Notes: generated by a model from the letters alone, not told the origin. Numbered from the stretch's first letter, positions 818 through 62,529 are shown. The stretch is DNA of 64,000 nt from Candidatus Microgenomates bacterium (GCA_016204995.1 JACQJR010000002.1:96551-160550), one strand, 5' to 3'. Numbers and translations are program-made.

Positions 818-1882
818 GTGGATAAACTAATTAAAAAAGCCCACCAAATTCATTTAAGATATGTCCTGGATTCTTCGCCCGGAATACGAAGAAGCCGGGT
901 AGGCCTGCCTGCTGGCGCAGACAAGCCTGCGCAGGCAGGTCAAAGTTTTAAGTATTTTGACCCAAATGGAGTCACTATTCATAATCAGAATACGCTAAGT
1001 AGAATTAAAGGTTTGGCTATTCCTCCAGCCTGGAAAGACGTTTGGATTTCTCCGTTGGAACAGGGCCACCTGCAAGCTACCGGTTTTGATAAAAAGGGGC
1101 GTAAGCAATATATTTATCACGCCGACTGGCGCACTCTTTGTGAGGAAGATAAATTTGATAGCTTAATTGATTTTGCCGCACTTTTACCGCAACTTCGCAG
1201 TCGGGTTAACAACCTCTTAAGGACTAGTACTTTAAGTAAAGAAAAGGTTCTGGCCGCGATCGTTTGGCTACTGGAACATACTTTTATTAGAGTTGGTAAT
1301 GATGAATATGCCCGAGAAAATCAGTCCTTTGGCTTGACCACTTTAAGAGACAGACATGTTAGTATCCGCGGCTCAAATATTAAATTTGAATTTATGGGTA
1401 AAAGCGGCGTGTTTCATTTAGTTAAAATTTCCCATCCGACAGTGGCCAGAACCATCAAAGAGTGCAGTGAATTGCCAGGCTATGAACTTTTCAAATGCGT
1501 TGACGAAGACGGCGTTAAACATATCATTGATTCCAGCGATGTAAATAATTTTTTGCAGGAAATTACCGGTTGTGAAATTAGCGCCAAAGATTTCCGCACT
1601 TGGGGCGGGACAGTGCTCGCCGCTAGTAATTTAAATTCTCTGGGGTATTTTGAAGATCGTGAAACAGAAGAAAAAAATATTAGTCTGGTGGTTAAAGAAG
1701 TGGCTAAACATTTAAGAAATACCCCCAAAGTCTGCCGTAAATATTATATTCACCCAACTGTAATAACGACTTATTCTCAAAAGATTTTAGTGCCCCATTT
1801 CCAAAATAAATCTGCTAAAAAATTAGACTTTATGTCAAAGGATGAATATAAAGTCTTGACTCTACTTCAAAAATACTCCTAA
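818..1882 (+). CDS. DNA topoisomerase IB (poxvirus/bacterial type)
   Basis: N-terminal LRYV..PGIRR motif and overall similarity to bacterial TopIB. A 15-aa in-frame palindromic insert (PAGADKPAQAGQ) lies near the N-terminus. Confidence 0.7.
   Translation: MDKLIKKAHQIHLRYVLDSSPGIRRSRVGLPAGADKPAQAGQSFKYFDPNGVTIHNQNTLSRIKGLAIPPAWKDVWISPLEQGHLQATGFDKKGRKQYIYHADWRTLCEEDKFDSLIDFAALLPQLRSRVNNLLRTSTLSKEKVLAAIVWLLEHTFIRVGNDEYARENQSFGLTTLRDRHVSIRGSNIKFEFMGKSGVFHLVKISHPTVARTIKECSELPGYELFKCVDEDGVKHIIDSSDVNNFLQEITGCEISAKDFRTWGGTVLAASNLNSLGYFEDRETEEKNISLVVKEVAKHLRNTPKVCRKYYIHPTVITTYSQKILVPHFQNKSAKKLDFMSKDEYKVLTLLQKYS
904..939. repeat. in-frame palindromic element (extended copy) inside topoisomerase IB
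   Basis: CCTGCCTGCtggcgcagacaaGCCTGCGCAGGCAGG. Encodes LPAGADKPAQAGQ. Confidence 0.6.
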
Positions 1883-3405
1883 TTTATCTTTTCAATTTGC
1901 AGTCTTTTTTCTATTTTAATTTTACCTATTTTTGTTTCTTCCAAAAGTTTAGTTTTAGCAGTGACTTTGGCAAACCACTTTTCTTGCCTTTGCACATCAT
2001 TATTATCCTCTATGATTAAAAACCTAAATTTGTCGCAGCCTAAATGCGGCTCGCTATAAAATTCGGCCCCCGGAACATAGGTATATTTAGAGGTAATTGG
2101 GTAAGGAAAATTTTGATATTCGCAAGGCACAAAACCATATTTAGATCGGCCGTACCACCAAAATAAATATTGATAAGGATAATCTTTGTCAGAATCGGCG
2201 AGAAAATTATAGTTATTAAATCCGTCGCCTTCCCGATTTTCATAGATCCAATCTAAAGCTTTTAATTGATTGACAAGCAGACTAGGATTATCACTTATCT
2301 GTAAATCCCCCTGATAACGATTTTGAAAAAATGTAAGCTGCGATAAAAAAACGATTGTTAGTATCACAACCGCCAATTTTTTAGAGAAACTAGTCACCAT
2401 CAATATTAGAGAAATAAAAAGTAGTGGCGCGAGATATATGGTGTGCCAATCCCGCCAACCTTTGTTGGTGGCGAAAAATAAATACGATATTCCTAAAAGC
2501 GTCAGCACTAACATGACAAAATTTCTTTTAAAACCATTCCTTTCCGCTAGTAAAAATTTAATGGCCACGCCGATAACTATTATTAAACTGGCAAACAAAC
2601 TTTGCGGCGTCACACTCTGTTTGAGAATATTGACAAAATTAATCAAGGTAGCAGCAAAACTGGTGCCGGAAAAAATACCCACATTGCTGCTGCCTATGCT
2701 TTTAAAGCCTACTGTCAAAAATTGCCGACCTATTTCTAAAAGAAATATGACAGGGACCAAGGTAAAAATAGCAAATTCTCTCTTAGCTAGCTTTCCCTTT
2801 ACCACCGACCATAATCCTACCGCTAAGTAAAAAATAAATAAGGCGGCGGCACCAGCTAGATCCAGATTAAAAGCCAAAATTATCGGTAAAGTCGCCCAAT
2901 AAAAATATTTCTTTTGACCTGCCAAAAAACTACATAATAATAGAATTTCCGTGAAGGCCAAGAATACTAAAGGAAAAGGGTTAAAAGCGTAGCGGGAAGT
3001 TTCATAAAATGGCCAAAATATTTGCAAAGCCGCGCCAGTTAAAAGAGCCATATTCAAAGACACTCTTTTTGATAACTGCCAAATTACTACCGCCGTCGTG
3101 GCCAGTGATAACATTATTAATATAAAGACTCCGCCAAAAGGGTGACCGTTAAATAATTTGTAGCCGATAGATATGAAATAGTACCAACCAGGGCCGGCAA
3201 AAATTCCCGGAATACTTGTTTCCGGACCTTTGGTAAGAATTTGCCCCCGCCACCAGAATTCTCTAGCGTTGACTGCATCCTCGCCTTGATCAGTGGTAAA
3301 GAAAAAGTTGTTATTTTGCGTAGGCATTAAACGAATTATGAAGGCAAAAATTAAAATTAAAGCGCAAAATATCCAGAAGAACCTTTTAGGCATATTAGAT
3401 GTCAT
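1879..3405 (-). CDS. polytopic membrane protein, GT-C glycosyltransferase-like (PMT/ArnT-like)
   Basis: About 12 predicted TM segments and an aromatic-rich periplasmic C-terminal domain. Assigned from general architecture only. Confidence 0.35.
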   Translation of the reverse strand: MTSNMPKRFFWIFCALILIFAFIIRLMPTQNNNFFFTTDQGEDAVNAREFWWRGQILTKGPETSIPGIFAGPGWYYFISIGYKLFNGHPFGGVFILIMLSLATTAVVIWQLSKRVSLNMALLTGAALQIFWPFYETSRYAFNPFPLVFLAFTEILLLCSFLAGQKKYFYWATLPIILAFNLDLAGAAALFIFYLAVGLWSVVKGKLAKREFAIFTLVPVIFLLEIGRQFLTVGFKSIGSSNVGIFSGTSFAATLINFVNILKQSVTPQSLFASLIIVIGVAIKFLLAERNGFKRNFVMLVLTLLGISYLFFATNKGWRDWHTIYLAPLLFISLILMVTSFSKKLAVVILTIVFLSQLTFFQNRYQGDLQISDNPSLLVNQLKALDWIYENREGDGFNNYNFLADSDKDYPYQYLFWWYGRSKYGFVPCEYQNFPYPITSKYTYVPGAEFYSEPHLGCDKFRFLIIEDNNDVQRQEKWFAKVTAKTKLLEETKIGKIKIEKRLQIEKIN

Positions 3406-4043: not shown

Positions 4044-4044
4044 A

Positions 4045-4644: not shown

Positions 4645-6149
4645 ATGGCAGTCTTCTTTTTTAATTTTACCCTAGCTTTCCTAAGCCAAGATTTCTTAAT
4701 CTTATATCCATCCTGTTTGTCTTCTACCGCATAGCCCATCTGTTCTAACGCCTGGCGGATTTTATCTGACTCTTTCCACTTTCCTTCTTTCCTTAAGACC
4801 TCTCTTTTTTCCACCAATTCCGTAATTTCTACTGGTAATTCTAATGATTTACCTAAATATTTTTCTAATCCTAACCCTAGAATTTTATCCATCTTTAAAA
4901 TATCCTCCCCATTTCCTTTTTTCACCGCTTCCCAAAAAACGGCCATAGCTTGTGGCACTCCTAAGTCATTATTAAGAGCCTCCATAAATTTATCCATCAT
5001 TCCACTACCACTACTTTTTACATCTCTTACTGTTACTCTTAAATTATTTAATGCATTTTGAGCTGCTTGCAAACTATCCCAGGTAAAATTTAATTTATCC
5101 CGGTAGTGAGCAGTTAAAAATAAATAGCGCAAAGCCAAAGGGTCAAAACCACGTTGTTTAATATCTGCTAAAGTGTAGACATTACCCAAACTTTTACTCA
5201 TCTTTTGCCCATCAACTAAAACAAATTCATTATGTAACCAAAATTTGACAAATTCTTTCCCTGTTGCCGCTTCCGATTGGGCAATTTCGTTAGTGTGGTG
5301 TATTGGAATATGATCAATCCCGCCAGTATGGATATCTATAGTTCGACTTTGCTCACCACGAAAATTACCATTTTCGAATGCATCTCCTAAATATTTCATG
5401 GCCATGGCCGAGCATTCAATATGCCAACCCGGAAAACCATAAGTTTGTCTAAACTCTGTAGGAACCCTACTCCAATTCTCTCTTTTAACAAGCTGGCCCG
5501 CGAAAGGACCCTCAAACCACCAATTCATTTGTCGCATTGGCAAATCAATCTTTGCTGGCTCAAATTTCCACAGAGCAAAGTCAGTCGGATTTTTTTTACC
5601 TTCTACCATTTCTACCCTAACCCCAGGTTGAATACCATCCTTACCGCCGGCGAGTTGTCCGTAATTGGAAAACTGTGAAGTATCAAAATAAATTCCATAA
5701 TTAGTTTTATAAGTAAAGCCTTTTTCTTCCAATGTTTTAATTAATTGAATCATTTCTTGAATGTTATCCGTAGCCCGCACTAAAGTTGGCTGCTCAATAT
5801 TTAAAGCATCCAAGTCTGCTAAAAATTCAGCCGTATATTTTTTTGCAATCTCCCAGACTGAAATTCTTTCCTTATTTGCCTCATATTCCAACTTATCTTG
5901 TCCTAATCTTGGCTCTTCTCCTTCCTCAAATAAATGACCCACATCAGTAATGTTCATCACATTCATTACTTTATAACCATTAATCTCTAATGTTTTCCTT
6001 AAAATATCTACAAAAACATAAGCTCGCAGATTACCAATGTGAGGACTGGAGTAAACCGTCGGGCCACAGGAATAAATTCCTACTTTGCTATCTTCTAGCG
6101 TAACGAATTCCTCCAACTTCCTTGTTTTGGTATTATAGAGCCTTATCAT
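4641..6149 (-). CDS. cysS: cysteinyl-tRNA synthetase
   Basis: HIGN class I motif (PHIGNLRAY), KMSKS (KMSKSLGN), CysS zinc-site cysteines. Confidence 0.9.
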   Translation of the reverse strand: MIRLYNTKTRKLEEFVTLEDSKVGIYSCGPTVYSSPHIGNLRAYVFVDILRKTLEINGYKVMNVMNITDVGHLFEEGEEPRLGQDKLEYEANKERISVWEIAKKYTAEFLADLDALNIEQPTLVRATDNIQEMIQLIKTLEEKGFTYKTNYGIYFDTSQFSNYGQLAGGKDGIQPGVRVEMVEGKKNPTDFALWKFEPAKIDLPMRQMNWWFEGPFAGQLVKRENWSRVPTEFRQTYGFPGWHIECSAMAMKYLGDAFENGNFRGEQSRTIDIHTGGIDHIPIHHTNEIAQSEAATGKEFVKFWLHNEFVLVDGQKMSKSLGNVYTLADIKQRGFDPLALRYLFLTAHYRDKLNFTWDSLQAAQNALNNLRVTVRDVKSSGSGMMDKFMEALNNDLGVPQAMAVFWEAVKKGNGEDILKMDKILGLGLEKYLGKSLELPVEITELVEKREVLRKEGKWKESDKIRQALEQMGYAVEDKQDGYKIKKSWLRKARVKLKKKTAI

Positions 6150-6182
6150 AACTTCAAATTTCTAAATTCTAATATCTAATCT

Positions 6183-6608
6183 CTAAGCCGCTTTGGGCAT
6201 TCTGGTTTCCGTCCTTCTTTTCAGCCGGCCGGTGACGCGAGATAGAGTCTTTTGAAAAATTGATTCATTTTCTGCTTTTTCTTCTTGCTTTTTAACCTGC
6301 TCTTGCTGCTCTCCCTGCATTTTTTCTTGCGCCTCCTCTTGCACCTTGGCTTTCCTCAGTCGCACCATTTCATCCTCCAGCTCCCGATGATGAGCCGCTA
6401 AAATCTGTGTCTTTTTCCGTTCCTCAATGGGCGGTTTAACCGGAGTTGGCGTTGGCGTAGAGCTGGTCTGTTGACTAGTTGTTCCCATTGTTTCTAGCGG
6501 CGCCACCTGTTTAACACCTTCTTTGACTATTTCCAACGGCTCCTGCAGCATCTGTTTTACAACTCCTTTGGCTACTCCACCAGCTTGTTGTCCTGTTTGT
6601 TTAATCAT
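6183..6608 (-). CDS. hypothetical low-complexity (E/Q/K-rich) protein
   Basis: ORF with a coiled-coil-like charged composition. No domain recognised. Confidence 0.35.
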   Translation of the reverse strand: MIKQTGQQAGGVAKGVVKQMLQEPLEIVKEGVKQVAPLETMGTTSQQTSSTPTPTPVKPPIEERKKTQILAAHHRELEDEMVRLRKAKVQEEAQEKMQGEQQEQVKKQEEKAENESIFQKTLSRVTGRLKRRTETRMPKAA

Positions 6609-6615: not shown

Positions 6616-7224
6616 TTAGAATTCTCTTCTACCCTCTATGGCCTGATTAATTGTCGTTTCATCAGCATATTCAATATCTGCTCCAGTTGGTATCCCTACC
6701 CCAAGTCTAGTAACTTTGAGATTTGCGTTTTGAGATTTGAGTTGCTTACTAATATACATCGCTGTGGCTTCTCCTTCCATAGTTGGATTAGTGGCCAAAA
6801 TAATTTCTAGGCTCTCCGTATCCATATTTTTAACTCTTTTTAATAGTTCATTAACAAAAATTTCTTCCGGTCCGATATTTTCCAAAGGGTTAATTGCTCC
6901 ATGCAAAACATGATAAACCCCTTTATATTTACCAGATTTTTCAATAGCCAGCGTATCAAGAGGCTGTTCCACTACCATAATCATATTTTTATCTCGTCCT
7001 GGATCTATGCAAATACTGCAAGGGTCGGTTTCAGCCACATTTTTACAGACTGAACAAAGCACAGTTTCTTTTTTAAGAGAGATTAAATTAGTAGCGAAAA
7101 CCGCCAGTTCTTCTTCTGGCACATGGAGTAAATAAAAAGTTAATCTTTGAGCAGTTTTTGGTCCAATGCCTGGTAATTTCTCAAAAGATTCAATCAGCCG
7201 CTCAATAACTTTAGGTATTTGCAT
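6616..7224 (-). CDS. recR: recombination protein RecR
   Basis: N-terminal HhH (LPGIGPKTAQRL), C4 zinc finger (CSVCKN..CSIC), Toprim region. Confidence 0.9.
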   Translation of the reverse strand: MQIPKVIERLIESFEKLPGIGPKTAQRLTFYLLHVPEEELAVFATNLISLKKETVLCSVCKNVAETDPCSICIDPGRDKNMIMVVEQPLDTLAIEKSGKYKGVYHVLHGAINPLENIGPEEIFVNELLKRVKNMDTESLEIILATNPTMEGEATAMYISKQLKSQNANLKVTRLGVGIPTGADIEYADETTINQAIEGRREF

Positions 7225-19447: not shown

Positions 19448-21532
19448 CTAGGACGGAAGTTGCGGTTTTTTCCAGGAAGCGAACTTACAATTTGGATAGC
19501 GGGAACAGCCGAAAAATTTACGGTGTTTTTTAGTTAGTCTGACAATCACCTCACCCTTCTTACATTCCGGACAAGTCATACCAGCCTTTTCCACATATTG
19601 AGCTTTCCATTTACAATCTGGAAAACGGGAACAGGACAAAAATTTACCGAACCGGCCAATTCTAATCACCTGTTTCCCTATTTTACATTCGGGGCACATC
19701 TCACCGGTTTCCTGATTTTCAATCTTCACCCTTGCCGCTTTTTCCGATAATGCCAATTTTTTCTCAAACGGCTGCCAAAATTCGCGGATGACAGGCACCC
19801 ACTTTTCCTTACCATTAGCAATTTGATCTAAATTATCTTCCATCTTGGCTGTAAATTGATAATCAAAAACCTCGGGGAAATTTTTCAACAAGAAATCATT
19901 GGTCGCTATTCCCAAAGAGGTAGGTTTAAATTTACCCTCTACCTTTTCCACATATTGCCGGGTACTGATAGTAGAGATTGTAGGGGCGTAAGTAGAAGGC
20001 CTACCAATTCCTAATTTTTCCAGAGTTTTAATTAAAGAGGCCTCATTGTAGCGAGCCGGCGGCTCGGTAAATTTCTGCTGCGGTTCTATTTTAATTAATT
20101 GAAGCTGCTCGTTTTCTGCCACGTCAGGCAATTGTGGTTCTTCTTTTTCCATTCTGCCATAAACTTTTTTCCAACCATCAAACTTTCTCACTTGGCCTTT
20201 TGCTTGCAGTAAATAGATCTTAGATTTTAGAGCTTGGATATTAGATTGAGCGTTGACATTGATTGTCGTTTCGTCATAAATGGCATTATTCATTTGACAC
20301 GCCACAAATCGTTTCCAAATTAACTCATATAATTTTTCTCCATCATTTCCCAATTTGGCATTGGACATTGGTAATTGGCCATTGGAAATTCCAACTTCAG
20401 TTGGACGTATCGCTTCATGTGCCTCTTGAGCAACTTTACTGGTAACTTTATAAAAACGGAATTTTTCCGGCACATATTCCTTACCATATTTACTGGTGAT
20501 AAAATCACGGACTTTTTGCACTGCTTCCGGAGCCAGATGCGTAGAATCTGACCGGTGATAAGTAATTAAACCCTCTTCATATAATTTTTGAGCGATAGAC
20601 ATCGTTCGTTTGGCACTCCAAGAAAATAAACGGGCAGCGGCTTGGGTCATGGTAGAAGTAGTAAAAGGCGGGTAAGGATTTTTATGCACTTCCTTTTTCT
20701 CCACCGATTTAACTTGATAACTAGCTTTCTCTAAATCAGTTACTGCGACATCCGCCTGCTCTTTATTCTTAATCTCCGCTCTCTTATCATCAATTTGTAT
20801 TAGCTTAACCAAAAAGTCCGTCGCGGGTGACACGGGGAGGGGGTCCCCCAAGAAGGGGTCCCCTTGTGGGTTTTTTTGGGGGAAAACCCGGGGCAGGACC
20901 CGCAAGGACGATACTTCCGCTAAGATCTCCCAATATTCCTCCGGTTTAAAAGCCTCTATTTCCCGCTCCCGATCCACAATTAAGCGGACTGTTACGGATT
21001 GCACCCGACCGGCTGATAGACCCACTCTCACTTTTTTCCACAAAAGTGGTGATAATTTATAACCAACAATTCTATCCAGCACCCGCCGCGCTTGTTGAGC
21101 ATCTACCAAATCCATGTCCAAAGAACGCGGATGAGCAATGGCATTTTTAACTGCGCTTTCCGTAATCTCGTGGAATACAATTCTGTTCATTGGCTTATTG
21201 GTATTATTGGTATTTATTTCGCCAGAAACAAACTTGTTTATTTGTAGTATTTCGCCTACATGGTAGGCGATAGCTTCTCCTTCCCGATCAGGATCAGTCG
21301 CTAAATAAACATTTTTAGCCTTGGTTTTTAATTTTTTAATTTCATCTACGTTGGGTTTCTTACTAGGCATGGCTACATATTCCGGCTGAAAATCATGTTC
21401 CAAATCCACTCCAAATTTACTTTTAGGCAAATCCTCTACGTGACCGGCCGTTGCCCGGATAGCAAAATCGTCACCCAAAAAACGAGTCAAGGTACGAGCT
21501 TTGGTGGGCGATTCAACAATAATTAAGTCCAT
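19448..21532 (-). CDS. topA: DNA topoisomerase I with C-terminal zinc ribbons
   Basis: Toprim N-terminus (MDLIIVESPTKA), active-site region, C-terminal C4 zinc ribbons (CPECK..C). Carries a GC-rich in-frame insert at ~20818-20911. Confidence 0.9.
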   Translation of the reverse strand: MDLIIVESPTKARTLTRFLGDDFAIRATAGHVEDLPKSKFGVDLEHDFQPEYVAMPSKKPNVDEIKKLKTKAKNVYLATDPDREGEAIAYHVGEILQINKFVSGEINTNNTNKPMNRIVFHEITESAVKNAIAHPRSLDMDLVDAQQARRVLDRIVGYKLSPLLWKKVRVGLSAGRVQSVTVRLIVDREREIEAFKPEEYWEILAEVSSLRVLPRVFPQKNPQGDPFLGDPLPVSPATDFLVKLIQIDDKRAEIKNKEQADVAVTDLEKASYQVKSVEKKEVHKNPYPPFTTSTMTQAAARLFSWSAKRTMSIAQKLYEEGLITYHRSDSTHLAPEAVQKVRDFITSKYGKEYVPEKFRFYKVTSKVAQEAHEAIRPTEVGISNGQLPMSNAKLGNDGEKLYELIWKRFVACQMNNAIYDETTINVNAQSNIQALKSKIYLLQAKGQVRKFDGWKKVYGRMEKEEPQLPDVAENEQLQLIKIEPQQKFTEPPARYNEASLIKTLEKLGIGRPSTYAPTISTISTRQYVEKVEGKFKPTSLGIATNDFLLKNFPEVFDYQFTAKMEDNLDQIANGKEKWVPVIREFWQPFEKKLALSEKAARVKIENQETGEMCPECKIGKQVIRIGRFGKFLSCSRFPDCKWKAQYVEKAGMTCPECKKGEVIVRLTKKHRKFFGCSRYPNCKFASWKKPQLPS
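20818..20911. repeat. GC-rich low-complexity multi-palindromic in-frame insert in topA
   Basis: GGGGTCCCC x2, CCCC-aagaa-GGGG, TTTTTTTGGGGGAAAACCCGGGG. Roughly 70% GC versus a ~38% background. Encodes PRVFPQKNPQGDPFLGDPLPVSPATD and keeps the frame. Confidence 0.5.
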
Positions 21533-31573: not shown

Positions 31574-33637
31574 ATGCCACAAAAACTAATTGCCTTTTTC
31601 TACTACGCTTTGTTTTTCTTTACTCCGCTTTTATTTAATAAAGCCAACTCCGAACTTTTTGAACTGCCAAAAATGTACTTTGTCTGGGTAATTACTATTA
31701 TCATTGTCAGCTTGTGGCTAGTTAGAATAATCGCCGAAAAGCGAGTTATTTTTCAGCGAACATTTTTAGATATTCCTCTAATTTTATATCTAATATTTCA
31801 ATTAATTAGCACCTACTTTTCAATTGATCAATACACTTCTATTTGGGGATATTATTCCAGACTTAACGGCGGATTGATATCAACTATTAGCTATTTACTA
31901 CTTTATTGGGCCTATATTTCAAATTTAACCACCCAAAATACCCTATCTGCTCTTAAATTCCTGTTAATTTCTGGTTTACTAGTAGCTTTATGGGGGATTC
32001 CTAGTCATTTTGGCTATGACCCGAATTGTGTTCTTTTTGGCTACAACCTAACCACCAATTGCTGGAGCACCCAATTTGTACCAACTGAACGCATCTTTTC
32101 CACTTTGGGTCAACCAAATTGGCTGGCCAACTGGCTCGTAGCGCTCATGCCATTAACTTGGGCCATGTTTTTCACCTCTAAGATCAAAAATCTAAAATCT
32201 AAAATCTTTTATCTATATTTAAGTCTTATCCTAATAATAGCTATCATCTTCACCAGAAGTTCCTCCGGTTTTCTGGGATTAGTGGTAGCATTAGTAGTTT
32301 TTACCACCCCGCAAATTCTACACTTATTCAAGAAGGGGAAATTTCTTGTTTGGTTAACAATCTTACCCATTTTAACTATGTCTATATTTTTTGTGCAAAA
32401 ATTACCCAAAGTTGTCAATGGACTAAAATCTTGTACAGAAATTTTGACTTCTGAAGGCGAGTCGCACATTAATAGTAATATTACTCCTTCTAGTGACATC
32501 CGCTGTATTGTCTGGAAGGGTGCTTTTGATATATGGCGGCATTATCCATTAATTGGTAGTGGGCCGGAAACTTTTGCTTATTCCTATTACCAATTCCGTC
32601 CGGCTATCCATAACTTAACCAGCGAATGGGACTTACTTTATAATAAAGCCCATAATGAGTATCTTAATTTCTTGGCTAATAGTGGCCTAGCTGGTTTAAC
32701 AACATATTTAATTTTAATTATTATGGCTTTTTGGCTATTAGGCTCCTCGGCTCTTAGGAAAAACCCAACAGCCCTGCCTGCGCAGGCAGGCCAACGGCCT
32801 AATGCCCTAATAGCCTGGGGTTTACTCGCTGGTTTTGCCAGCCTTCTCGTCACCAACTTTTTCGGCTTTTCCGTCGTTGCCACTCAACTGCAATTTTTCT
32901 TATATCCGGCAATGGTGATAGGGCCACTGGGCTCTTGGGACGCTAGGCAATCGGACAATCAAAGGCCTAACGCCCTTCAAGTCATTTTAATTTTTCTAGT
33001 ATTATTTATTACCATCTTTCTGTTAGTTAAAATCTATCATTATTACCAGGCCGATCTTCATTACAGCCGGGCCCAAACTTTAGAAGATAATCAACAATAT
33101 GTGGATTCATTATCCGAAATTAGAAAAAGTCTCAACCTGCGACCAAATGAGCCATTATATAAAAACGAATTATCAGTTATTCTTTCATCGCTATCATTCT
33201 TAACTGCCAAAACCGATAGTGATCTTAGCGCCCAAATGACCAATATTGCTATCACATCTTCCGATCAAGCGCTAGCAACTTCGCCCTACAATCTTAATTT
33301 TCTCAAAAGTCGGGCCAGTATGTTTATTAAACTCTCCCAGCCGCAAGAGGCGATCAAAACCTTAGAATATGCCCAAAAACTCGTCCCTACCGAGCCCAAG
33401 ATTGCTTATAATCTAGGTCTAACCTATATACAACTGGATCAAAATGATCAAGCCATTCAGGAGTTTAAAAAAGCTACTCAACTTCGCCCCTTATACCGCG
33501 ACGCCTGGTTAGCACTCGGACTGGCCCAGTGGCAAAAAGGTGATAAAACTACCGCCCGCCATACTTTAAATTACATTTTGCAAAATATTGACTCCCAAGA
33601 TAAAGAGGTTCTAGAACAGCTCAAAAAGTGGAAATAA
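31574..33637 (+). CDS. O-antigen ligase (Wzy_C)-like polytopic membrane protein with C-terminal TPR repeats
   Basis: Many TM helices, a large periplasmic loop, C-terminal TPR-like repeats. Contains the in-frame palindrome CCTGCCTGCGCAGGCAGG (LPAQAGQ) and 9-mer repeat inserts. Confidence 0.5.
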   Translation: MPQKLIAFFYYALFFFTPLLFNKANSELFELPKMYFVWVITIIIVSLWLVRIIAEKRVIFQRTFLDIPLILYLIFQLISTYFSIDQYTSIWGYYSRLNGGLISTISYLLLYWAYISNLTTQNTLSALKFLLISGLLVALWGIPSHFGYDPNCVLFGYNLTTNCWSTQFVPTERIFSTLGQPNWLANWLVALMPLTWAMFFTSKIKNLKSKIFYLYLSLILIIAIIFTRSSSGFLGLVVALVVFTTPQILHLFKKGKFLVWLTILPILTMSIFFVQKLPKVVNGLKSCTEILTSEGESHINSNITPSSDIRCIVWKGAFDIWRHYPLIGSGPETFAYSYYQFRPAIHNLTSEWDLLYNKAHNEYLNFLANSGLAGLTTYLILIIMAFWLLGSSALRKNPTALPAQAGQRPNALIAWGLLAGFASLLVTNFFGFSVVATQLQFFLYPAMVIGPLGSWDARQSDNQRPNALQVILIFLVLFITIFLLVKIYHYYQADLHYSRAQTLEDNQQYVDSLSEIRKSLNLRPNEPLYKNELSVILSSLSFLTAKTDSDLSAQMTNIAITSSDQALATSPYNLNFLKSRASMFIKLSQPQEAIKTLEYAQKLVPTEPKIAYNLGLTYIQLDQNDQAIQEFKKATQLRPLYRDAWLALGLAQWQKGDKTTARHTLNYILQNIDSQDKEVLEQLKKWK
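32772..32789. repeat. 18-nt perfect palindrome CCTGCCTGCGCAGGCAGG in-frame in the Wzy-like membrane protein
   Basis: Encodes ALPAQAGQ. Flanked by GGCCTAATGCCCTAATAGCC 9-mer repeats. Confidence 0.6.
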
Positions 33638-33843: not shown

Positions 33844-33936
33844 AAAAGGCACCTTGGGGAGATATAAAAAATTTAAATCGCGTTTTGCGACAAATTTATA
33901 TATCACCTTACGGTGCCTTTAAGTATTCAGTTGTGG
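33844..33936 (+). repeat. Element Y copy A (structured repeat AAAAAGGCACC...AAATATCACC..GGTGCCTTT + TATTCAGTTGTGG)
   Basis: Outer stem GGCACC/GGTGCC encloses an internal AT-rich stem and a TCGC-gtttt-GCGA hairpin. About 85% identical to copy E at 58149. Confidence 0.6.
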
Positions 33937-36655: not shown

Positions 36656-37030
36656 CTAACTAAACTTTTTCCAAGTAGAGTGAAGCTTATTTAGCCTCCG
36701 GGAAAGTACCTTATATCTATCAATTAAGTCATCACAATCCTCTACTTTAATCCGAGTGAATGTTTTAGCTACGATTTTAATCTCCCGCAGATGGGTAATA
36801 ACTTCATCGGAAGAGCCAATGGCCATGGAAAGGAAGCGACAAAATTCGCGTGGAGAAGTTTTCTTACCGAATCCTTCGGCAATTTGAGGTGCAATCTTTT
36901 CCGCGGCTTCATTTAACTGATATCTCAATCTTTTGTAGATCGGTGGTAAGAGATTTGTTAAACTATAAACTGGATCAAGTAATTCTAAAGATAAATTGTA
37001 AACTTCCAAGTCTGTTACATCCTTAATCAT
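36656..37030 (-). CDS. four-helix-bundle protein (TIGR02436 / 23S rRNA intervening-sequence protein family)
   Basis: LEVYNLSLEL..LRYQLNEAAEKIAPQIAEGFGKKTSPREFCRFLSMAIGSSDEV matches the family pattern (QL.RAA.SI..NIAEG..R.S..EF..FL.IA.GS..E). 65 nt downstream of the ATPase, same strand. Confidence 0.65.
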   Translation of the reverse strand: MIKDVTDLEVYNLSLELLDPVYSLTNLLPPIYKRLRYQLNEAAEKIAPQIAEGFGKKTSPREFCRFLSMAIGSSDEVITHLREIKIVAKTFTRIKVEDCDDLIDRYKVLSRRLNKLHSTWKKFS

Positions 37031-40365: not shown

Positions 40366-40959
40366 ATGAGTGTCCAGAAAATTTTGACAGTGCAGAATCC
40401 GGTTTTGCGGACATCGGCTAAAAAAGTCACCCAATTTGATAAACGAATTGAACGGTTAATCACTGATTTAATTGATACTTTAAAAGTGCAAAAAGACCCC
40501 ATCGGAGTCGGTCTTGCTGCTCCTCAAATTGGCAAGTCCATAAGACTTTTTGTCGCTAAATTGGGTAAGGATATTATTCCCTTTATAAATCCGGAAATTA
40601 CTTGGAAATCTGAAAACACTAACGACCCAAAACCAACTAAACGTTTTCCTAAGAGCCTAGAAGCCCAAGAGCCCATAAGCCCCGAATACATCATGGAAGG
40701 ATGTCTGTCTCTTCCCCATTTTTACGGCCCAGTCCAGCGGGCCCACCAAGTCACAGTTCGTTATCAGACTCCAAAATTGGAAATTGGAAATTGGAAATTG
40801 GAAATTACGACGAAGTCGTTTAGTGGGCTGGCCGCGCAAATTATTCAACACGAAACAGACCATTTAAACGGCACATTATTTATTGATAATTTACTTCATC
40901 AAAAGCGTAAACTTTATAAATGGGAAGGCAAAGAATGGGAAGAAGTGGAATTACCGTAG
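40366..40959 (+). CDS. def: peptide deformylase
   Basis: Motifs GVGLAAPQIG, EGCLS, HETDHLNG. Contains in-frame repeat-derived inserts (KSLEAQEPISP, and a (GGAAATT)n tract encoding KLEIGNWKLEI). Confidence 0.85.
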   Translation: MSVQKILTVQNPVLRTSAKKVTQFDKRIERLITDLIDTLKVQKDPIGVGLAAPQIGKSIRLFVAKLGKDIIPFINPEITWKSENTNDPKPTKRFPKSLEAQEPISPEYIMEGCLSLPHFYGPVQRAHQVTVRYQTPKLEIGNWKLEITTKSFSGLAAQIIQHETDHLNGTLFIDNLLHQKRKLYKWEGKEWEEVELP

Positions 40960-41004: not shown

Positions 41005-41367
41005 ATGAGCGATTTTACCAAATTAAAAATATGGCAGAAATCTCACGAATTATCATTGGAGGTTTATCATCTTACTGCAAAACTACCTAAAGAAGAAACT
41101 TTCGGCTTAATGTCACAGTTACGCCGAGCAGCAGTATCAGTAGAATCTAATATTGCCGAGGGCGAATCAAGATTTAGTAGTAAGGATAAACTAAATTTCT
41201 TTATCCAAAGTCGCGCATCTATCGGCGAGGTCCAGACACAATTACTTTTAGTAGCTGATTTATATCAGCAATTAAAGAGTAAAGCTTTACAATTAAAAGA
41301 AGAATATACTAATCTTTATAAACAAATAAATAGTCTTGTTTCTTATAGAAGAAAAAACGATTTATGA
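41005..41367 (+). CDS. four-helix-bundle protein (23S rRNA IVS protein family)
   Basis: KLKIWQKSHELSLEVYHLT..QLRRAAVSVESNIAEGESRFS family pattern. Inserted between def and fmt. Confidence 0.65.
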   Translation: MSDFTKLKIWQKSHELSLEVYHLTAKLPKEETFGLMSQLRRAAVSVESNIAEGESRFSSKDKLNFFIQSRASIGEVQTQLLLVADLYQQLKSKALQLKEEYTNLYKQINSLVSYRRKNDL

Positions 41368-42431
41368 ACCCTAACAGCCCAAGAGCCCTGCCTGCGCAGG
41401 CAGGCCAACAGCCCAAGAGCCCTCCTCTCGTTTTTTTCAGCACACCAGACTATGTGCTGCCAGTATTGGAACAGCTAAAAAATGCCGGTTATGAAATTGC
41501 AGCTATTGTTTCCCAGCCACCCAAACCAGTTGGCAGGAAACAAATTTTAACACCAACTCCTACTGCTGTTTGGGCTAGCCAAAATAACATCCCCAATCTT
41601 GATGCTTCACCTAAAACTTTAATTGAACCTTTACAAAAAATTGGCGCGACCATTGCCATTCTGGCTTCCTACGGCCGGATTATTCCGCAGGCAATTATTG
41701 ATGTTTTTCCACAAGGCATCTTAAATATTCACCCCTCACTTTTACCAAAATTTCGCGGTGCTTTACCGGTAGAAGGAGCATTGGTAGCAGGCGAAAGCGA
41801 AACCGGCGTGACTATTATCAAATTGGATGCCGAAATGGATCATGGTCCCATTGTTTCTCAAATTACCGAAAAAATTAATAAGGATGACACTAAAATTACT
41901 TTAAGAAAAAGATTATTTGAAAAAGGGGCCGCTGAATTAATTAAAGTCTTACCAGACTACTTAGCTGGCAAAATCGCACTGCAAGAACAAGATCACACTC
42001 AAGCTACTTATACCACTTTGATGAAAAAAGAATACGGCTTTATCCCGCCGCAATATTTGGAAGCTGCATTTAAAGGTGAGACTTTAGAGGAAAAATGGCC
42101 CATCCCATTCATAAAAGACTTTTCCCTAGTACCTAGTGCCTATTCCCTTCACAATTTTATCCGTGCTATTAACCCCTGGCCCGGAGCATACACTGAAGTA
42201 ATACTACCAATAAATACCAATACTACCAATAAGCAAAGCTTGGCCCTTCGGGCTAATTACCAATCAACTAAAAAAAGATTAAAAATTCTGAAATCTCACT
42301 TAGAAAACCTAGTAGCCCAAGAGCCTAATGCCCCAACAGTCCACTTAGTGCCTGACTTGGTCCAATTAGAAGGCAAAAATCCCGTTTCTTGGCAACAATT
42401 TAAACAAGGCTACCCCAACTTCACTTTCTAA
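41364..42431 (+). CDS. fmt: methionyl-tRNA formyltransferase
   Basis: Formyltransferase core (NIHPSLLPKFRGALPV) and a C-terminal Fmt domain. The N-terminal extension contains the CCTGCCTGCGCAGGCAGG palindrome (ALPAQAGQ). ATGA overlap with the upstream gene. Confidence 0.85.
   Translation: MNPNSPRALPAQAGQQPKSPPLVFFSTPDYVLPVLEQLKNAGYEIAAIVSQPPKPVGRKQILTPTPTAVWASQNNIPNLDASPKTLIEPLQKIGATIAILASYGRIIPQAIIDVFPQGILNIHPSLLPKFRGALPVEGALVAGESETGVTIIKLDAEMDHGPIVSQITEKINKDDTKITLRKRLFEKGAAELIKVLPDYLAGKIALQEQDHTQATYTTLMKKEYGFIPPQYLEAAFKGETLEEKWPIPFIKDFSLVPSAYSLHNFIRAINPWPGAYTEVILPINTNTTNKQSLALRANYQSTKKRLKILKSHLENLVAQEPNAPTVHLVPDLVQLEGKNPVSWQQFKQGYPNFTF
41387..41404. repeat. 18-nt perfect palindrome CCTGCCTGCGCAGGCAGG in-frame at the fmt N-terminus
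   Basis: Encodes ALPAQAGQ. Flanked by CAGCCCAAGAGCCC repeats. Confidence 0.6.
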
Positions 42432-44813: not shown

Positions 44814-44897
44814 CTTAAATAGTGATGGGTTATGGGTTGTGAGTTATGGTTATGGACAAATATTCCGAACTCATCACTTTGAACCCATAACTATCTG

Positions 44898-44993: not shown

Positions 44994-45365
44994 TTGGGGG
45001 TTATGAGCGAGAATAATGGATTTAGATTTGAAGAATTACAAGTTTACCAAAGAGCTTTAAATTTTGCGAATGAAGTTTATGAAATCAGCAACCAATGGCC
45101 CAGAGAACATGTTTTTTCTTTAACAGATCAATTAAGAAGAGCATCACTCTCTGTAGCCTTAAATATTGCTGAAGGAGCAAGTAGAACTAAATTAGAATTT
45201 AAAAGATTTATAACTATTAGTAGGGGTTCCTGTCATGAATGCATCCCTATTATAGAAATAGCTTTTAGGCAAAAATTAATTGATATAAAAAGAAAGGAGG
45301 TATGGTTAAACGAGGTTACAACATTATCTAAAATGTTAAGTAAACTTAAGAGTTCAATAGTTTAA
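44994..45365 (+). CDS. four-helix-bundle protein (23S rRNA IVS protein family)
   Basis: ELQVYQRALNFANEVYEIS..QLRRASLSVALNIAEGASR family pattern. Inserted between tRNA-Thr and rpmG, flanked by 9-mer tandem repeats. Confidence 0.65.
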   Translation: MGVMSENNGFRFEELQVYQRALNFANEVYEISNQWPREHVFSLTDQLRRASLSVALNIAEGASRTKLEFKRFITISRGSCHECIPIIEIAFRQKLIDIKRKEVWLNEVTTLSKMLSKLKSSIV

Positions 45366-45580: not shown

Positions 45581-45652
45581 TAGGGGTGTGGTGAAATGGT
45601 ATCACAGCAGTCTCCAAAACTGCTTTTTCAGGTTCGAATCCTGACACCCCTG
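45581..45652 (+). tRNA. tRNA-Trp (anticodon CCA)
   Basis: Acceptor AGGGGTG/CACCCCT, D-arm GTGA-AATGGTA-TCAC, anticodon stem GCAGT/ACTGC with loop CTCCAAA, T-arm TCAGG-TTCGAAT-CCTGA. Confidence 0.7.
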
Positions 45653-45780
45653 CTACGTTCAGCTCGCTATTAACATGGCTCTTGAACGTAGTAAACCACA
45701 ATTTTATCTGTTATTTGAGGATCTATTTGAAATATTGCGAGCATGAACCGTAGCCTGCTACAAATCAGCTCATTTCATTC

Positions 45781-46059
45781 GTGATTGTAGCGAGCTATAC
45801 TTATTTCGTATACTACTTTTACATTCTCCGCAGCCTTAAAAATGGAAAGTTATACCTCGGTCAAACTTCCGACCTAAAAGCAAGAGTTAAATCCCACAAT
45901 AATGGAGAAAATAAAGCAACAAAACCAAATATCCCTTATGAACTTATCTTTTATTCTGCTTTCAAAGATGAAAAGGATGCAATTAATTGCGAAAAATATT
46001 TTAAGACAACAGCAGGCTGGAAAAGAATTCATAAAATGCTTGAGAACATAATAAAATAA
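45781..46059 (+). CDS. GIY-YIG nuclease-domain protein (small, stand-alone)
   Basis: YFYILRS..GKLYLGQTSDLKARVKSHNNG..E.Y.K matches the GIY-YIG (YxY..G.YIG.T.DL..R...H) pattern. The N-terminal ~10 codons of the ORF may not be translated. Confidence 0.55.
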   Translation: MIVASYTYFVYYFYILRSLKNGKLYLGQTSDLKARVKSHNNGENKATKPNIPYELIFYSAFKDEKDAINCEKYFKTTAGWKRIHKMLENIIK

Positions 46060-55270: not shown

Positions 55271-55445
55271 AAAGATCTAAATTCTAATATCTAAAATCTA
55301 GATGAGGTGCCTCGGTGAGATTTATTACGTTCATGTAACTGAACGTAACTCACTGTCTTAAGCTTTCATTTATTTTAACACACAAAGGCCCCTGTTGCAA
55401 GTTGCACACAAGGGCCGCCGAGAAGTCAAGTCCGGCGAAGCCGGG

Positions 55446-58250: not shown

Positions 58251-58268
58251 AAATTTGGGTATTGGTTA

Positions 58269-60091: not shown

Positions 60092-60106
60092 TTTGCCAAT
60101 TATACA

Positions 60107-60886
60107 CTAGCTGACTAATTTTTCTACAAAATCTCCCACAACATAGGCAATTAACGCAGCTCCTGATCCGACTAAGAGCATTTCCATGCCGCCCCGAAAC
60201 CAACCCACGGCCGTAATCAGCGACCGCAACGACCCCACTATAAATAGTGTCGCCGCCCCGACAATCATGGAAAACATAAATTTATCAGTAATAGCTGGAG
60301 TTAGATATGAAAAAAGCGGAATAAAACCGGCCACAAAAAAGGCCGCGAAAGTGGCCAGAGCATGCTTTTTGGGATCGTCATTGGCATCCTCAATAATACC
60401 CAGCTCGTCCCGCATCATTGTCTCTACCCAAATTTGGCGATCCCCGGTAATAATTTTAACCGCCCTCTCCAAATCCTTTCCCACAAATCCCTTTTTACGA
60501 TAAATTTCCCGTATCTCATCAATTTCCAACTCTGGTAAATGATCAATTTCCCAATTTTCTTTTTGGCGCTGGGCTTTGGCATAAGCTTTTTCCGATCTGG
60601 CCCCCAAAAAATTTCCCGCCCCCATGGAAACGCCATCGGCAAAAATATTAGCCAAACCTAAAATTACCACTATGGAAGGAACCAGGCTGGCGCCGGTCGC
60701 CCCGGCCACTACGGCAAAAGTGGTCACAATACCGTCGCTGGCTCCATAAACAAAATCACCGATATAGCGGCCGGCGGCATGACGATGGAACATTTGCTCT
60801 TCGCGTTGATATTCGGGATTGGTGACCAAATATTCTTTTTTCCGTCTTAGAGCCAGTTGCAAAATATTTTCAATCTTTTGATTCAT
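60107..60886 (-). CDS. VIT1/CCC1-family iron/manganese transporter
   Basis: GASDGIVTTFAVVAG motif and VIT topology. Confidence 0.7.
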   Translation of the reverse strand: MNQKIENILQLALRRKKEYLVTNPEYQREEQMFHRHAAGRYIGDFVYGASDGIVTTFAVVAGATGASLVPSIVVILGLANIFADGVSMGAGNFLGARSEKAYAKAQRQKENWEIDHLPELEIDEIREIYRKKGFVGKDLERAVKIITGDRQIWVETMMRDELGIIEDANDDPKKHALATFAAFFVAGFIPLFSYLTPAITDKFMFSMIVGAATLFIVGSLRSLITAVGWFRGGMEMLLVGSGAALIAYVVGDFVEKLVS

Positions 60887-60971
60887 GACGAAGTCAATCC
60901 TCCCACTTAATAAGCAAAAACAGTCTGGGCCGGATAAATTCTATCTACCACCTGGAGTAATTTAGCAAGCA

Positions 60972-61253
60972 TTATTTGGTTCCTTCTTCCACTCCTTCCA
61001 TCTGCCTAACCAATTGATCGGCTTGTTGCTTATTTTTTAAAGCTTCTCCGGTGAGTTTGGCTGGGCTGATAGCAGTTTCGGCTTCTTCGCCTGCCCGCCG
61101 CTCTCGGGCCAGTTGTTTAGCTTGGGTGGCGTAAGAGACAGCTTTGAGTCGCCGATCCTTAATAATCTTGATAATTTCTGCTGGAGTTATTGGCTGATCC
61201 GGATTTTGATCCATATTATAAAATAGTTTAAACTTTGCTTTGGTTAATTTCAA
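60972..61253 (-). CDS. hypothetical protein
   Basis: 93-aa ORF downstream of tgt. No TM, not YajC-like. Confidence 0.3.
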   Translation of the reverse strand: MKLTKAKFKLFYNMDQNPDQPITPAEIIKIIKDRRLKAVSYATQAKQLARERRAGEEAETAISPAKLTGEALKNKQQADQLVRQMEGVEEGTK

Positions 61254-61284
61254 GCCCAGTTCATGTAAACTAAACGGGGCAAGT

Positions 61285-62529
61285 CTATTTTAGCCATCTT
61301 CCTTTAAGTTTTGCGTATTGGCCGTCGTTAATGGCTGTTCTTACTTTTTCCATCAGCTTAGTAAAAAAATAAACGTTATGATACGTGGCTAGTCGGTAAG
61401 CTAATAGTTCGCGGGTGCGAAAAAGATGATTGATATAGGCTCGAGTATAATTCTCACAGACCATACAAGCGCAATTTTTGTCTAAAGCCAGACTAGAACT
61501 TGCCCATTGGCCTTTGGTGATATTAAAGCGAAAACGGTTTTTCAGATTACCTATTGGCGGCGAAACAAAAATCTCACCCATCCTTGCCAGTCGCGTTGGT
61601 ATTACACAATCAAAGGTATCAATACCTAAACTTATGATATTTAAGATATCATCAATTTCACCTACTCCCAACATATGACGTGGCTTTTGCGGATCACTAT
61701 TAGTAGTAGTTAGCTCTACTATCTCATACATATTTTGCTTGTCTTGATGTGCTCCGCCTAGAGCCACGACAGAAAAATTTTGATCTACAAATTTGATGGA
61801 TTCCAGCCTTAAATCGGTAAACCGGCCGCCGTGCGTTACTCCATATAACAACTGGTCTTTTTTATGATGGGCTTTTTTAGACCTGGCCAGCCAGCGATTA
61901 GTCCTTTCAAGCGATTTTTTAGTTTCTTCATAATTGGCCCTTGGCGACTCTAAATCGTCAAAGCCCACTATTAGGTCCGCCCCTAAATCTTCTTGAATTT
62001 TAATAGAACTTTCAGGCGTAAGCGAAGTTAACTTGCCGTCAAATGGAGAACGGAAAACTACGCCGCGATCATTTATTTTAATTACCATTGGCGCTATATC
62101 CCCGCCTCGACTTGCCGTCTTCGGCGAGGCGGGTCGCTCTCGTGGACCATCTTTTCGTCCAGAGGACGATCGGCCTTTGGCCGACAAAAGCTTAACATCG
62201 CCGCCGATGCCTAAAGAAAAAACCTGAAATCCGCCGCTATCTGTCATAGTCGGCCTGCCTGCGCAGGCAGGTCCATTCCAAGCCATAAATTTAGCCAAGC
62301 CGCCTTGTTTTTTAATGATCTCCTCGCCCGGGCGAAGGTGCAGATGATAGGTGTTAGCCAGGACTGCTTCTACTCCGATCTCATTTAAATCTTGACTGTC
62401 CAAAGCCTTGACTGTGGCCATGGTGCCAACCGGCAAAAAGGCCGGAGTATGAATTATGCCATGGCTAGTTTTAATTTCACCAGTACGAGCTGTACCTTTA
62501 CTGCGTTTTAAAATTTTGAAAGTTGCCAT
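61285..62529 (-). CDS. tgt: queuine tRNA-ribosyltransferase with in-frame GC-rich inserts
   Basis: LPVGTMATVK, DSGGFQ, zinc site (C.C..C). The palindrome CCTGCCTGCGCAGGCAGG sits just before DSGGFQ, and a ~100-nt GC-rich multi-palindromic insert encodes GRSSSGRKDGPRERPASPKTASRGGD. Confidence 0.85.
   Translation of the reverse strand: MATFKILKRSKGTARTGEIKTSHGIIHTPAFLPVGTMATVKALDSQDLNEIGVEAVLANTYHLHLRPGEEIIKKQGGLAKFMAWNGPACAGRPTMTDSGGFQVFSLGIGGDVKLLSAKGRSSSGRKDGPRERPASPKTASRGGDIAPMVIKINDRGVVFRSPFDGKLTSLTPESSIKIQEDLGADLIVGFDDLESPRANYEETKKSLERTNRWLARSKKAHHKKDQLLYGVTHGGRFTDLRLESIKFVDQNFSVVALGGAHQDKQNMYEIVELTTTNSDPQKPRHMLGVGEIDDILNIISLGIDTFDCVIPTRLARMGEIFVSPPIGNLKNRFRFNITKGQWASSSLALDKNCACMVCENYTRAYINHLFRTRELLAYRLATYHNVYFFTKLMEKVRTAINDGQYAKLKGRWLK
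62254..62271. repeat. 18-nt perfect palindrome CCTGCCTGCGCAGGCAGG in-frame in tgt
   Basis: Read on the minus strand it encodes GPACAGR, immediately N-terminal to the catalytic DSGGFQ. Confidence 0.6.

Follow-up and report, generated by a model that had tools for sequence, protein, structure and literature searches.

An 18-bp palindrome inserted in frame into conserved genes of a Microgenomates genome and recurring across the Candidate Phyla Radiation

How does one and the same short palindrome come to lie inside several unrelated conserved genes of a bacterium, each time with the reading frame intact? The question is raised by a stretch of 64,000 nucleotides from a Candidatus Microgenomates bacterium (GCA_016204995.1, JACQJR010000002.1:96551-160550), hereafter the window, i.e., the whole stretch of DNA that was analyzed, numbered from its first letter. 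The palindrome is CCTGCCTGCGCAGGCAGG, a perfect 18-mer with the arms (CCTG)2 and (CAGG)2. The original prediction, made from the sequence alone, had reported four copies, one of them a longer derivative in the topoisomerase IB gene, in a genome resembling those of the Candidate Phyla Radiation (CPR), and both the copies and the affiliation (Microgenomates) were confirmed. Three exact copies are present in the window, which has a GC content of ~40%, against an expectation of 0.00 from 100 dinucleotide-preserving shuffles. A mismatch-tolerant search added a single site at 922-939, identical at 16 of 18 positions, which is the 3' part of a 36-nt derivative at 904-939 composed of CCTGCCTGC + TGGCGCAGACAAGCCTGC + GCAGGCAGG, where CCTGCCTGC is the left half and GCAGGCAGG the right half of the palindrome with 18 other bases between them. 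The predicted starts at 904, 41387 and 62254 were exact, and the one given as 32772 was a single base off (true start 32773). The copies and their host genes are as follows.

904-939, 36-nt derivative of the palindrome in the topoisomerase IB gene, splitting a GGT glycine codon and adding 12 amino acids (GLPAGADKPAQA/G)
32773-32790, exact 18-bp palindrome in the gene for a Wzy_C/TPR (O-antigen-ligase-like) protein, read as LPAQAG
41387-41404, exact 18-bp palindrome in the N-terminal extension of fmt, read as LPAQAG
62254-62271, exact 18-bp palindrome in the minus-strand tgt gene, read as PACAGR, exactly six codons between WNG and PTMTDSGG
818-1882, plus strand, bacterial topoisomerase IB (Pfam Topoisom_I/Top1B_N_bact; PDB 2f4q; 100% match to an NCBI Microgenomates protein)
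31574-33637, plus strand, Wzy_C + TPR membrane protein (Pfam; homologs)
41364-42431, plus strand, methionyl-tRNA formyltransferase, fmt (Pfam Formyl_trans_N/C; PDB)
61285-62529, minus strand, tRNA-guanine transglycosylase, Tgt (Pfam TGT; PDB; homologs)

All four copies are located within long open reading frames (ORFs) with strong Pfam matches, which confirms the topoisomerase IB, Wzy-like, fmt and tgt genes as the hosts originally named. Every copy preserves the reading frame, and the encoded peptides are those that had been claimed (PAQAGQ/LPAQAGQ and PACAGR): LPAQAGQ in the Wzy-like protein and Fmt, GLPAGADKPAQAGQ in topoisomerase IB and PACAGR in Tgt, which amounts to three LPAQAG-type frames, one PACAGR frame and no CLRRQ frame. 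A perfect palindrome can be read in just three different frames, all of them free of stops here; as the length is also a multiple of three, a genic copy would be translated as six extra residues. The predicted RNA hairpin is modest (-11 kcal/mol for the 18-mer, -28.5 kcal/mol for the 36-nt form with flanks), and no other GC-rich hairpin recurs within the window. Exact-protein look-ups returned no record for the fmt protein or for the product of the ORF at 62498-63340.

Judged by alignment, the copies are insertions relative to homologs, and the host proteins continue on either side of them as had been proposed. In Tgt, 37 of 44 aligned homologs read W-x-G-PTMTDSGG without any insert where the window protein has six extra residues, the solved Thermotoga maritima enzyme (PDB 2ash) leaves a clean six-residue gap at this place, and on the DNA level the site is a pure 18-bp addition. 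Likewise, 46 of 49 topoisomerase IB homologs have no insert between PGIRR and xxGxxFKY, where the window protein has 12 additional residues, the 36 nt interrupting the GGT codon between G and T. Relatives do not carry the same peptide encoded by unrelated DNA, so the alternative of an ancestral segment was not seen. Residue 22 of the fmt query pairs with residues 2-5 of nearly all best matches in a search of 1.84 billion representatives and with residues 5-7 of solved Fmt chains in the PDB; these offsets place the palindrome (residues 9-14) in a private 19-residue N-terminal extension, and inspection of the sequence revealed no alternative in-frame start between the palindrome and the conserved LVFFSTPDY. 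The Wzy-like copy is situated in a loop of widely varying length between conserved hydrophobic segments (40 homologs).

Two insert-bearing proteins, Tgt and topoisomerase IB, were modeled with AlphaFold2 using homolog alignments, and the models were confident overall (mean predicted local distance difference test, pLDDT, of 85 and 91). In the Tgt model, the insert (residues 87-92) forms a coil between helix 78-81 and strand 94-96 with reduced pLDDT, and in the topoisomerase IB model it forms a coil or turn between strands 23-27 and 44-47, with residues 31-40 as the block of lowest pLDDT (65). The models thus show a loop location for these two copies. The 'surface loops' of the original prediction hold in this modeled form, as low-confidence coil, for two of the inserts; the Wzy-like copy is in a variable loop and the fmt copy in an N-terminal extension. 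As a separate observation on Tgt, a second insert of ~40 residues (GDVKLLSAKGRSSSGRKDGPRERPASPKTASRGGDIAPM; residues 105-144, window 62098-62217) was modeled with pLDDT <50; its length is hypervariable among Microgenomates homologs, and its DNA is GC-rich with the small inverted repeats tcgtccagaggacga and tcggcctttggccga.

The four window genes proved too narrow a frame for this element, as the same 18-mer is found in many CPR classes and in some further phyla. An exact scan of one genome per GTDB species (a 596-Gb collection, with taxa assigned by record title) yielded at least 119 loci with 124 exact copies, and the locus counts given here and below refer to these matches listed. Seventy of them are CPR/Patescibacteria, which include WWE3, Microgenomates, Gottesman-, Woese-, Shapiro- and Beckwithbacteria, Dojkabacteria and Saccharibacteria as well as the Paceibacterota/Parcubacteria groups Nomura-, Kaiser-, Yonath-, Zambryski-, Wildermuth-, Uhr-, Magasanik- and Staskawiczbacteria. 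Another eight carry the unclassified title 'bacterium', and further matches listed stem from Bacteroidota, gammaproteobacterial metagenome-assembled genomes (MAGs), Terriglobia and a few high-GC genomes (chance is plausible for these); two isolate genomes, Litoribacter ruber and Rosettibacter primus, carry the 18-mer. By chance, ~9 sites would be expected in 596 Gb at uniform composition, and ~1e-12 per site at 40% GC (14 G/C + 4 A/T). CPR loci have a median GC of ~0.40, and at this per-site probability their copies are not chance. The flanks of the loci are mutually unrelated, which indicates independent placements of an identical 18 bp. In the papers that it covered, a literature search found no occurrence of the 18-mer string or of 'LPAQAG' and no paper on CPR palindromic elements, in agreement with the earlier impression that such elements had not been described in CPR genomes.

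Near-variants are rare, with five one-mismatch versus 124 exact copies in 872 kb of loci; the fairer comparison, restricted to unselected second copies, is five loci with a second exact copy and five with a one-mismatch copy. From their sequences, the copies look young or constrained. Density is ~1 per 16 kb in the window and mostly one per 8-kb locus elsewhere; five loci have two copies 0.6-5 kb apart, and the remainder are singletons. In several non-CPR genomes, the 18-mer is one module of a longer multi-copy repeat with conserved flanks, so that the palindrome exists as a module outside CPR too. These composite repeats were found at the following places.

L004:153 and L043:3050, Saprospiraceae MAG
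L104:4898 and L111:5424, Bacteroidota MAG
L012, L033, L071, L076, L082 and L101, Sphingobacteriales MAG

A viral vector was considered and yielded no lead: almost all of the 25 viral-contig matches are on contigs with at least 50% GC, where chance or larger GC-rich repeats are likelier, and are thus uninformative. The identity of the sequence across very deep lineages is the main unexplained fact and demands either conserved recognition machinery or horizontal spread.

Among the matches listed, 44 of 74 CPR copies are in an unambiguous ORF, with the LPAQAG frame used 36 times, PACAGR eight times and CLRRQ never (chi-square p=2.6e-11). We reason from general codon composition that a preference for insertion between purine and pyrimidine would by itself give no favor to LPAQAG and should produce many CLRRQ-frame copies. 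As flank preference alone cannot yield the frame bias, selection acting on the peptide is the best explanation. Copies in the LPAQAG frame are mostly preceded by D, G or N, residues that are typical of turns. Nineteen of 20 sampled CPR host ORFs have Pfam domains, mostly of housekeeping enzymes, including TopA, PolA, GatB, GyrB, ArgRS, CysRS, PheRS-beta and class II aminoacyl-tRNA synthetases as well as a Mur ligase, Ddl and an RNase J-like beta-CASP nuclease.

The sole flank signal is a purine directly 5' and a pyrimidine directly 3' of the palindrome; of 208 flanks read outward, 78% begin with a pyrimidine. The preference is kept in the 35 copies without a spanning ORF (purine at -1 in 29/35, pyrimidine at +1 in 23/35) and is thus a property of the element or its insertion, not a coding constraint. 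The insertion event is most directly visible at five Parcubacteria-type loci, at which a 5' fragment or pseudo copy of tRNA-Gln with the 18-mer is found beside an intact gene. Filled and empty copies differ by exactly the 18-mer, placed between ..TCG and TCTAATGG.. in the D arm, with no target duplication. These pairs show a clean 18-bp insertion. The fragments with the 18-mer and the adjacent tRNA-Gln genes are located at

L027:1660-2120
L109:370-800
L037:3470-4030
L042:300-500
L038:6500-6930

Functional tRNAs carrying the insert were rejected as an interpretation, because the tRNA-like contexts are partial or pseudo copies next to an intact tRNA-Gln. Direct repeats flank the palindrome at fmt (17 nt), L080 (14 nt), L007 (~17 nt) and L091 and were considered as target-site duplications; this was rejected, given that the tRNA-Gln and tgt sites have none. 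Where such repeats are present they vary in length, the L007 unit occurs three times and the L080 palindrome is in the middle of (ATTTTCA)4, both being tandem repeats of the host region. The repeat around the fmt copy probably reflects a short-period repeat context as well, not a target-site duplication, and is arranged as follows.

41373-41389 and 41407-41423, plus strand, 17-nt direct repeat AACAGCCCAAGAGCCCT, read in different frames (NSPRA and QPKSP)

The placements are independent, as shown by unrelated host genes and by different positions in homologous genes. In Wzy-like homologs of other Microgenomates, the element is at positions other than residue 401 of the window protein.

P0258 (L150), exact 18-mer at residue 327
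P0244 (L149), 36-nt extended palindrome (9 + 18 + 9) at residue 332
P0245 (L151), variant CCTGCCTCGCCGGCAGGCAGG at residue 477, within a (CAAACTC)n array

The topoisomerase IB turn was also struck independently: P0165 carries CCTGCCGGCAGGCAGG, and P0122 has a different 30-nt insert three codons upstream that begins with GCCTGCCT and continues with another small hairpin. Other loci have hairpins with identical arms and different loops, or retain the two halves around an unrelated internal 4-30 nt. The Tgt insert site is a hot spot for other GC-rich mini-inserts, among them a 63-nt hairpin in P0028 and a recurrent GPHFAKASRGK mini-insert (DNA ~CCCCACTTCGCYAAGGCTTCGMGGGG) in four homologs (L148 (P0011), P0030, P0038 and P0041). 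At L096 (7651 region, Patescibacteria MAG), the 18-mer is nested exactly in the middle of the PHFAK|ASRG motif, in what is presumably a glutamate-dehydrogenase-like protein by motifs spotted by eye. Occurrence of the PHFAK/ASRG insert in Tgt and in this protein of an unrelated Patescibacteria MAG, with the 18-mer nested in the latter, suggests several families of in-frame mini-inserts in CPR. Finally, period-7 continuity across the palindrome was observed in 7/104 copies versus 0.2% of 5,820 control positions (Fisher p=1.8e-8), with heptamer arrays interrupted in phase at L080, L151, L001, L054, L066 and L113. What goes beyond the original prediction is above all the spread across CPR, together with the strong bias in frame, the preference for purine|pyrimidine flanks, the existence of longer and variant forms and the association with heptamer arrays.

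The window itself is also rich in period-7 arrays (40774-40806, 20214-20246, 20355-20390, 32177-32207, 6149-6186, 6715-6743, 44825-44855 and 55275-55300). Some are inside the conserved genes def, topA and Wzy-like, and those at 40774-40806 (def) and at 20214-20246 and 20355-20390 (topA) have a total length divisible by three. Another sequence, GCCCAAGAGCC, often continued as ...TAATGCCC, occurs six times on both strands (7556, 32929, 40663, 41377, 41411 and 42315), in def and the Wzy-like gene as well as in fmt, where two copies are at the N-terminus and another is in the C-terminal domain, and may be another short inserted or slippage-derived motif.

We propose, with about even confidence, that CCTGCCTGCGCAGGCAGG is a non-autonomous micro-insertion able to form a hairpin, which spreads in clean units of 18 bp, is translated and persists only where the host protein can accommodate it. 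Its effective consensus would be purine-18mer-pyrimidine, and new chromosomal sites would receive a clean 18-bp addition without target-site duplication. Movement would probably proceed as a snap-back hairpin, via a trans-acting enzyme or a replication or repair step unlinked to the copies. A copy landing in a gene would give rise to six extra translated residues, and purifying selection would spare a copy only if its frame is tolerable and its place is a permissive loop or terminus, with LPAQAG favored, PACAGR tolerated and the Cys/Arg-rich CLRRQ frame eliminated. Copies could further lengthen or vary, giving 36-nt forms and loop variants. Of the selfish, colonizing behavior that was originally proposed, the insertion is borne out; mobility and selfishness are, like the hairpin intermediate and the trans-acting factor, what we infer, no mobilizing enzyme having been found in the searches described next.

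Several observations weigh against this proposal. A Pfam scan of all 73 window ORFs revealed no transposase, RAYT (the transposase associated with repetitive extragenic palindromes), HUH enzyme or nuclease linked to the copies, and no transposase or nuclease was enriched among 150 ORFs within 1.2 kb of 75 CPR copies, in which no Pfam family occurs more than three times and the 25 commonest families include no transposase or homing nuclease. A longer parent element was not apparent either: across the window and ~1 Mb of loci, half-sites are not paired around any segment the size of a gene. The nearest relatives have 60-71% protein identity, so that the collections hold no close-relative empty-site alleles and allow no within-population comparison of filled and empty sites. 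To our knowledge, a mobile unit of 18 bp is without experimentally supported precedent. Identity across deeply diverged lineages is hard to reconcile with a neutral parasite and would require a conserved recognition enzyme or horizontal spread, and translation of the insert is something we infer from frame statistics only.

The genes of the window represent ordinary CPR core functions; DprA is encoded as well, a gene for a small GIY-YIG protein follows tRNA-Trp, and there are three genes of the 23S_rRNA_IVP (Avd-like) type.

45781-46059, plus strand, free-standing GIY-YIG nuclease gene (92 amino acids), directly downstream of tRNA-Trp (45582-45653)
36656-37030, minus strand, 23S_rRNA_IVP gene (four-helix-bundle, Avd-like)
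41005-41367, plus strand, 23S_rRNA_IVP gene (four-helix-bundle, Avd-like)
44994-45365, plus strand, 23S_rRNA_IVP gene (four-helix-bundle, Avd-like)

The second 23S_rRNA_IVP gene is between def and fmt, overlaps the fmt start (ATGA) and adjoins the repeat-rich N-terminal extension of fmt. The layout of GIY-YIG and tRNA-Trp in the window resembles the GIY-YIG/tRNA-Gln arrangement of other CPR loci. Three of the five tRNA-Gln loci have an ORF between the interrupted fragment and the intact tRNA, which is an intact-looking 84-amino-acid GIY-YIG gene at L027 and L109 and has an HNH motif at L037. The fragments of L037 and L042 mismatch the acceptor stem of the resident tRNA, and fragment and palindrome may therefore travel together as a mobile cassette; we regard this as a lead, not a mechanism. 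Two other motifs recur in the window. A(5-6)GGCACC is present at 33844, 34585, 36552, 39332, 58150 and 63301, three of which continue as TTGGGG(T)AGATA(T)AAA; it is apparently intergenic and could be a promoter, terminator or small-RNA-associated element. An AT-rich palindromic 14-mer occurs at least six times on the plus strand where genes run minus, as TTTCAATTAATTGA (8254, 13629 and 22873) and TTTAATTAATTGAA (5736, 20090 and 29484).

Other explanations account for parts of these data. The 18-mer might be a host-selected DNA or RNA signal, such as a site for a DNA-binding or uptake protein or a chromosome-organization or self-marking site, with genic copies where tolerated. CPR bacteria are thought to rely on DNA uptake, DprA is encoded in the window, and perfect conservation across many CPR classes with few degenerate copies would be expected of a signal; the frame bias and loop placement resemble the uptake signal sequences in coding regions of Pasteurellaceae and Neisseria, and the absence of a linked mobilizing gene is compatible with it. 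We nevertheless consider a host signal rather unlikely, because copies arise as whole 18-bp insertions and not by point substitution of existing codons, their density is low and uneven (~1 per 16 kb in the window, mostly one per 8-kb locus), their position relative to genes, operons and GC skew is inconsistent, and the same sequence also forms part of longer repeats in Bacteroidota and further phyla. Known uptake sequences are, moreover, shorter, non-palindromic and far denser. Similarly improbable in our judgment is that no element exists, and that repeated CCTG/CAGG slippage, followed by snap-back (template-switch) synthesis that perfects quasi-palindromes, leaves GC-rich filler that is kept in AT-rich genomes. 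The (CCTG)2 and (CAGG)2 arms fit such a process, as do the topoisomerase IB derivative, readable as two copies with a +4/-4 register shift, the 36-nt extended palindrome with longer CCTG-like arms (L149), the variants with common arms and different loops and the location of some copies in heptamer arrays, i.e., slippage-prone DNA. More than 120 copies, however, share an identical center and length, and the empty sites (tRNA-Gln, tgt and topoisomerase IB homologs) have no CCTG seed. With a chance of ~1e-12 per site at ~40% GC for the 18-mer, convergent creation in dozens of lineages is implausible unless existing copies act as templates.

A perfect palindrome can also be viewed as two abutted 9-bp inverted termini, and the copies could then be footprints of excision, or remnants left by internal deletion, of a larger transposon with the terminal inverted repeats CCTGCCTGC...GCAGGCAGG. 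The copy at 904-939 and several variants keep both halves around unrelated 4-30 nt, as such remnants might. This origin is quite improbable, since an identical footprint length would be needed in >120 cases and neither a half-site pair around a gene-sized segment (window and ~1 Mb of loci), nor a transposase nearby, nor a target-site duplication was found. Least credible, and largely refuted, is an artefact of sequencing, assembly or adapters, or a peptide segment that is ancestral and not inserted. Most data are MAGs, and a Logan contig (L152, SRR12113383), presumably from the population that the window represents, stops at position 930, close to the palindromic center (GCCTGC|GCAGGC) of the 904-939 copy, so assemblers are sensitive to the sequence. 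Yet this contig matches window 31-930 over 900 nt without mismatch, a stretch that takes in the first 27 of the derivative's 36 nt, and an artefact would not account for the 36:8:0 frame bias, the purine|pyrimidine flanks and host frames that are open on both sides. The 18-mer is also found in assemblies from many laboratories and in the isolate genomes named above, and the homolog alignments rule out an ancestral segment. Such palindromes may, however, fragment de Bruijn assemblies, with the consequence that their host genes are under-reported.

The proposed spread of a hairpin-forming 18-bp unit has a bolder form, which we consider possible but doubtful: an active mobile element of 18 bp, the smallest known, common to the whole CPR/Patescibacteria radiation and a few other lineages, that would be moved as a hairpin by a conserved putative trans-acting enzyme and would have been remodeling loops of essential proteins throughout a superphylum. 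A CPR-wide DNA recognition tag is a less likely variant of it. CPR bacteria are not culturable alone, and little is known of their genome dynamics. Mobile or templated insertion, if real, would reduce the minimum size of mobile DNA to 18 bp and imply an insertion mechanism conserved across CPR. It would also account for some of the puzzling additional loops in housekeeping proteins of CPR and offer a ready marker of recent insertion, population structure and horizontal exchange in CPR metagenomes. On the practical side, the inserts disturb alignments, homology models and assembly graphs, as contigs may break near the palindrome.

How does the 18-mer compare with known repeats? HIP1 and DNA uptake sequences have 8-12 bp, accumulate by substitution and reach a density near 1 per kb. 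The 18-mer, in contrast, is added as whole units at ~1 per 16 kb. It shares with HIP1 (GCGATCGC, cyanobacteria; PMC5861425) and uptake sequences that short over-represented motifs are tolerated in coding regions and have frame preferences. Repetitive extragenic palindromes (REPs) and their paired forms (REPINs), mobilized by RAYTs, are similar in being short GC-rich palindromes with many non-autonomous copies, hairpin DNA as the likely substrate and no target-site duplication (PMC3116915). REPs are imperfect palindromes outside genes, frequently form REPIN pairs and are accompanied by a gene for a RAYT (IS200/IS605-like Y1 transposase) (PMC3116915). The 18-mer, however, is mostly intragenic (4/4 copies in the window and 44/74 CPR copies among the matches listed) and occurs as singletons, not as inverted doublets of fixed spacing; no RAYT (Y1_Tnp) was detected in a search confined to the 73 window ORFs and the 150 ORFs near 75 CPR copies. 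The element is not a REP or REPIN. It is also not a miniature inverted-repeat transposable element, as the tRNA-Gln pairs and the tgt site have no target-site duplication, and no parent insertion sequence sharing terminal inverted repeats was seen in a search confined to the window and ~1 Mb of loci. The mobile GC clusters and 'byp' elements of yeast mitochondria are 30-60 nt long and organellar, and byps are skipped by the ribosome. They resemble the 18-mer as GC-rich palindromic mini-inserts in AT-rich compact genomes, some of them in protein-coding genes; for the 18-mer, however, ordinary translation is favored by its frame bias and by a length that is a multiple of three.

Two systems come closer. 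The small dispersed repeats (SDRs) of Nostocaceae, reported by Elhai et al. in 2008, are said to be dispersed repeats of 21-27 nt, proposed to be mobile without a known enzyme, with some hairpins and nested insertions; they are reportedly associated with short tandem heptameric repeats and mainly intergenic. On this account of SDRs, the 18-mer would be analogous to them in its identical short copies, its nesting (L096) and its interruption of heptamer arrays, and differs in being shorter, a perfect palindrome, largely intragenic with a frame bias and superphylum-wide, with another sequence in another phylum. Rickettsia palindromic elements (RPEs; Ogata et al. 2000), to which the original prediction had likened the insert, are ~100-150 bp long, comprise ten families and are restricted to Rickettsia (PMC10969869). 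The likeness holds for palindromic hairpin repeats that are in frame in unrelated housekeeping ORFs of a reduced genome with no linked transposase, and for an extra peptide translated at sites compatible with fold and function (PMC10969869); the 18-mer, too, is in frame at permissive, coil-placed sites. It is not an RPE, given its 18 bp versus ~100-150 bp and the other taxon: the six amino acids it adds (12 for the 36-bp derivative) are far from the RPE peptide of 30-50 amino acids, and it is identical across many CPR classes. Size and taxon set it apart from RPEs, and an 18-mer is too short to carry detectable homology to them. In our analysis, the element works like RPEs or Nostoc SDRs and belongs to neither family. 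In-frame palindromic inserts are thus already known, as in RPEs, and what is new is an 18-bp palindrome insert across CPR.

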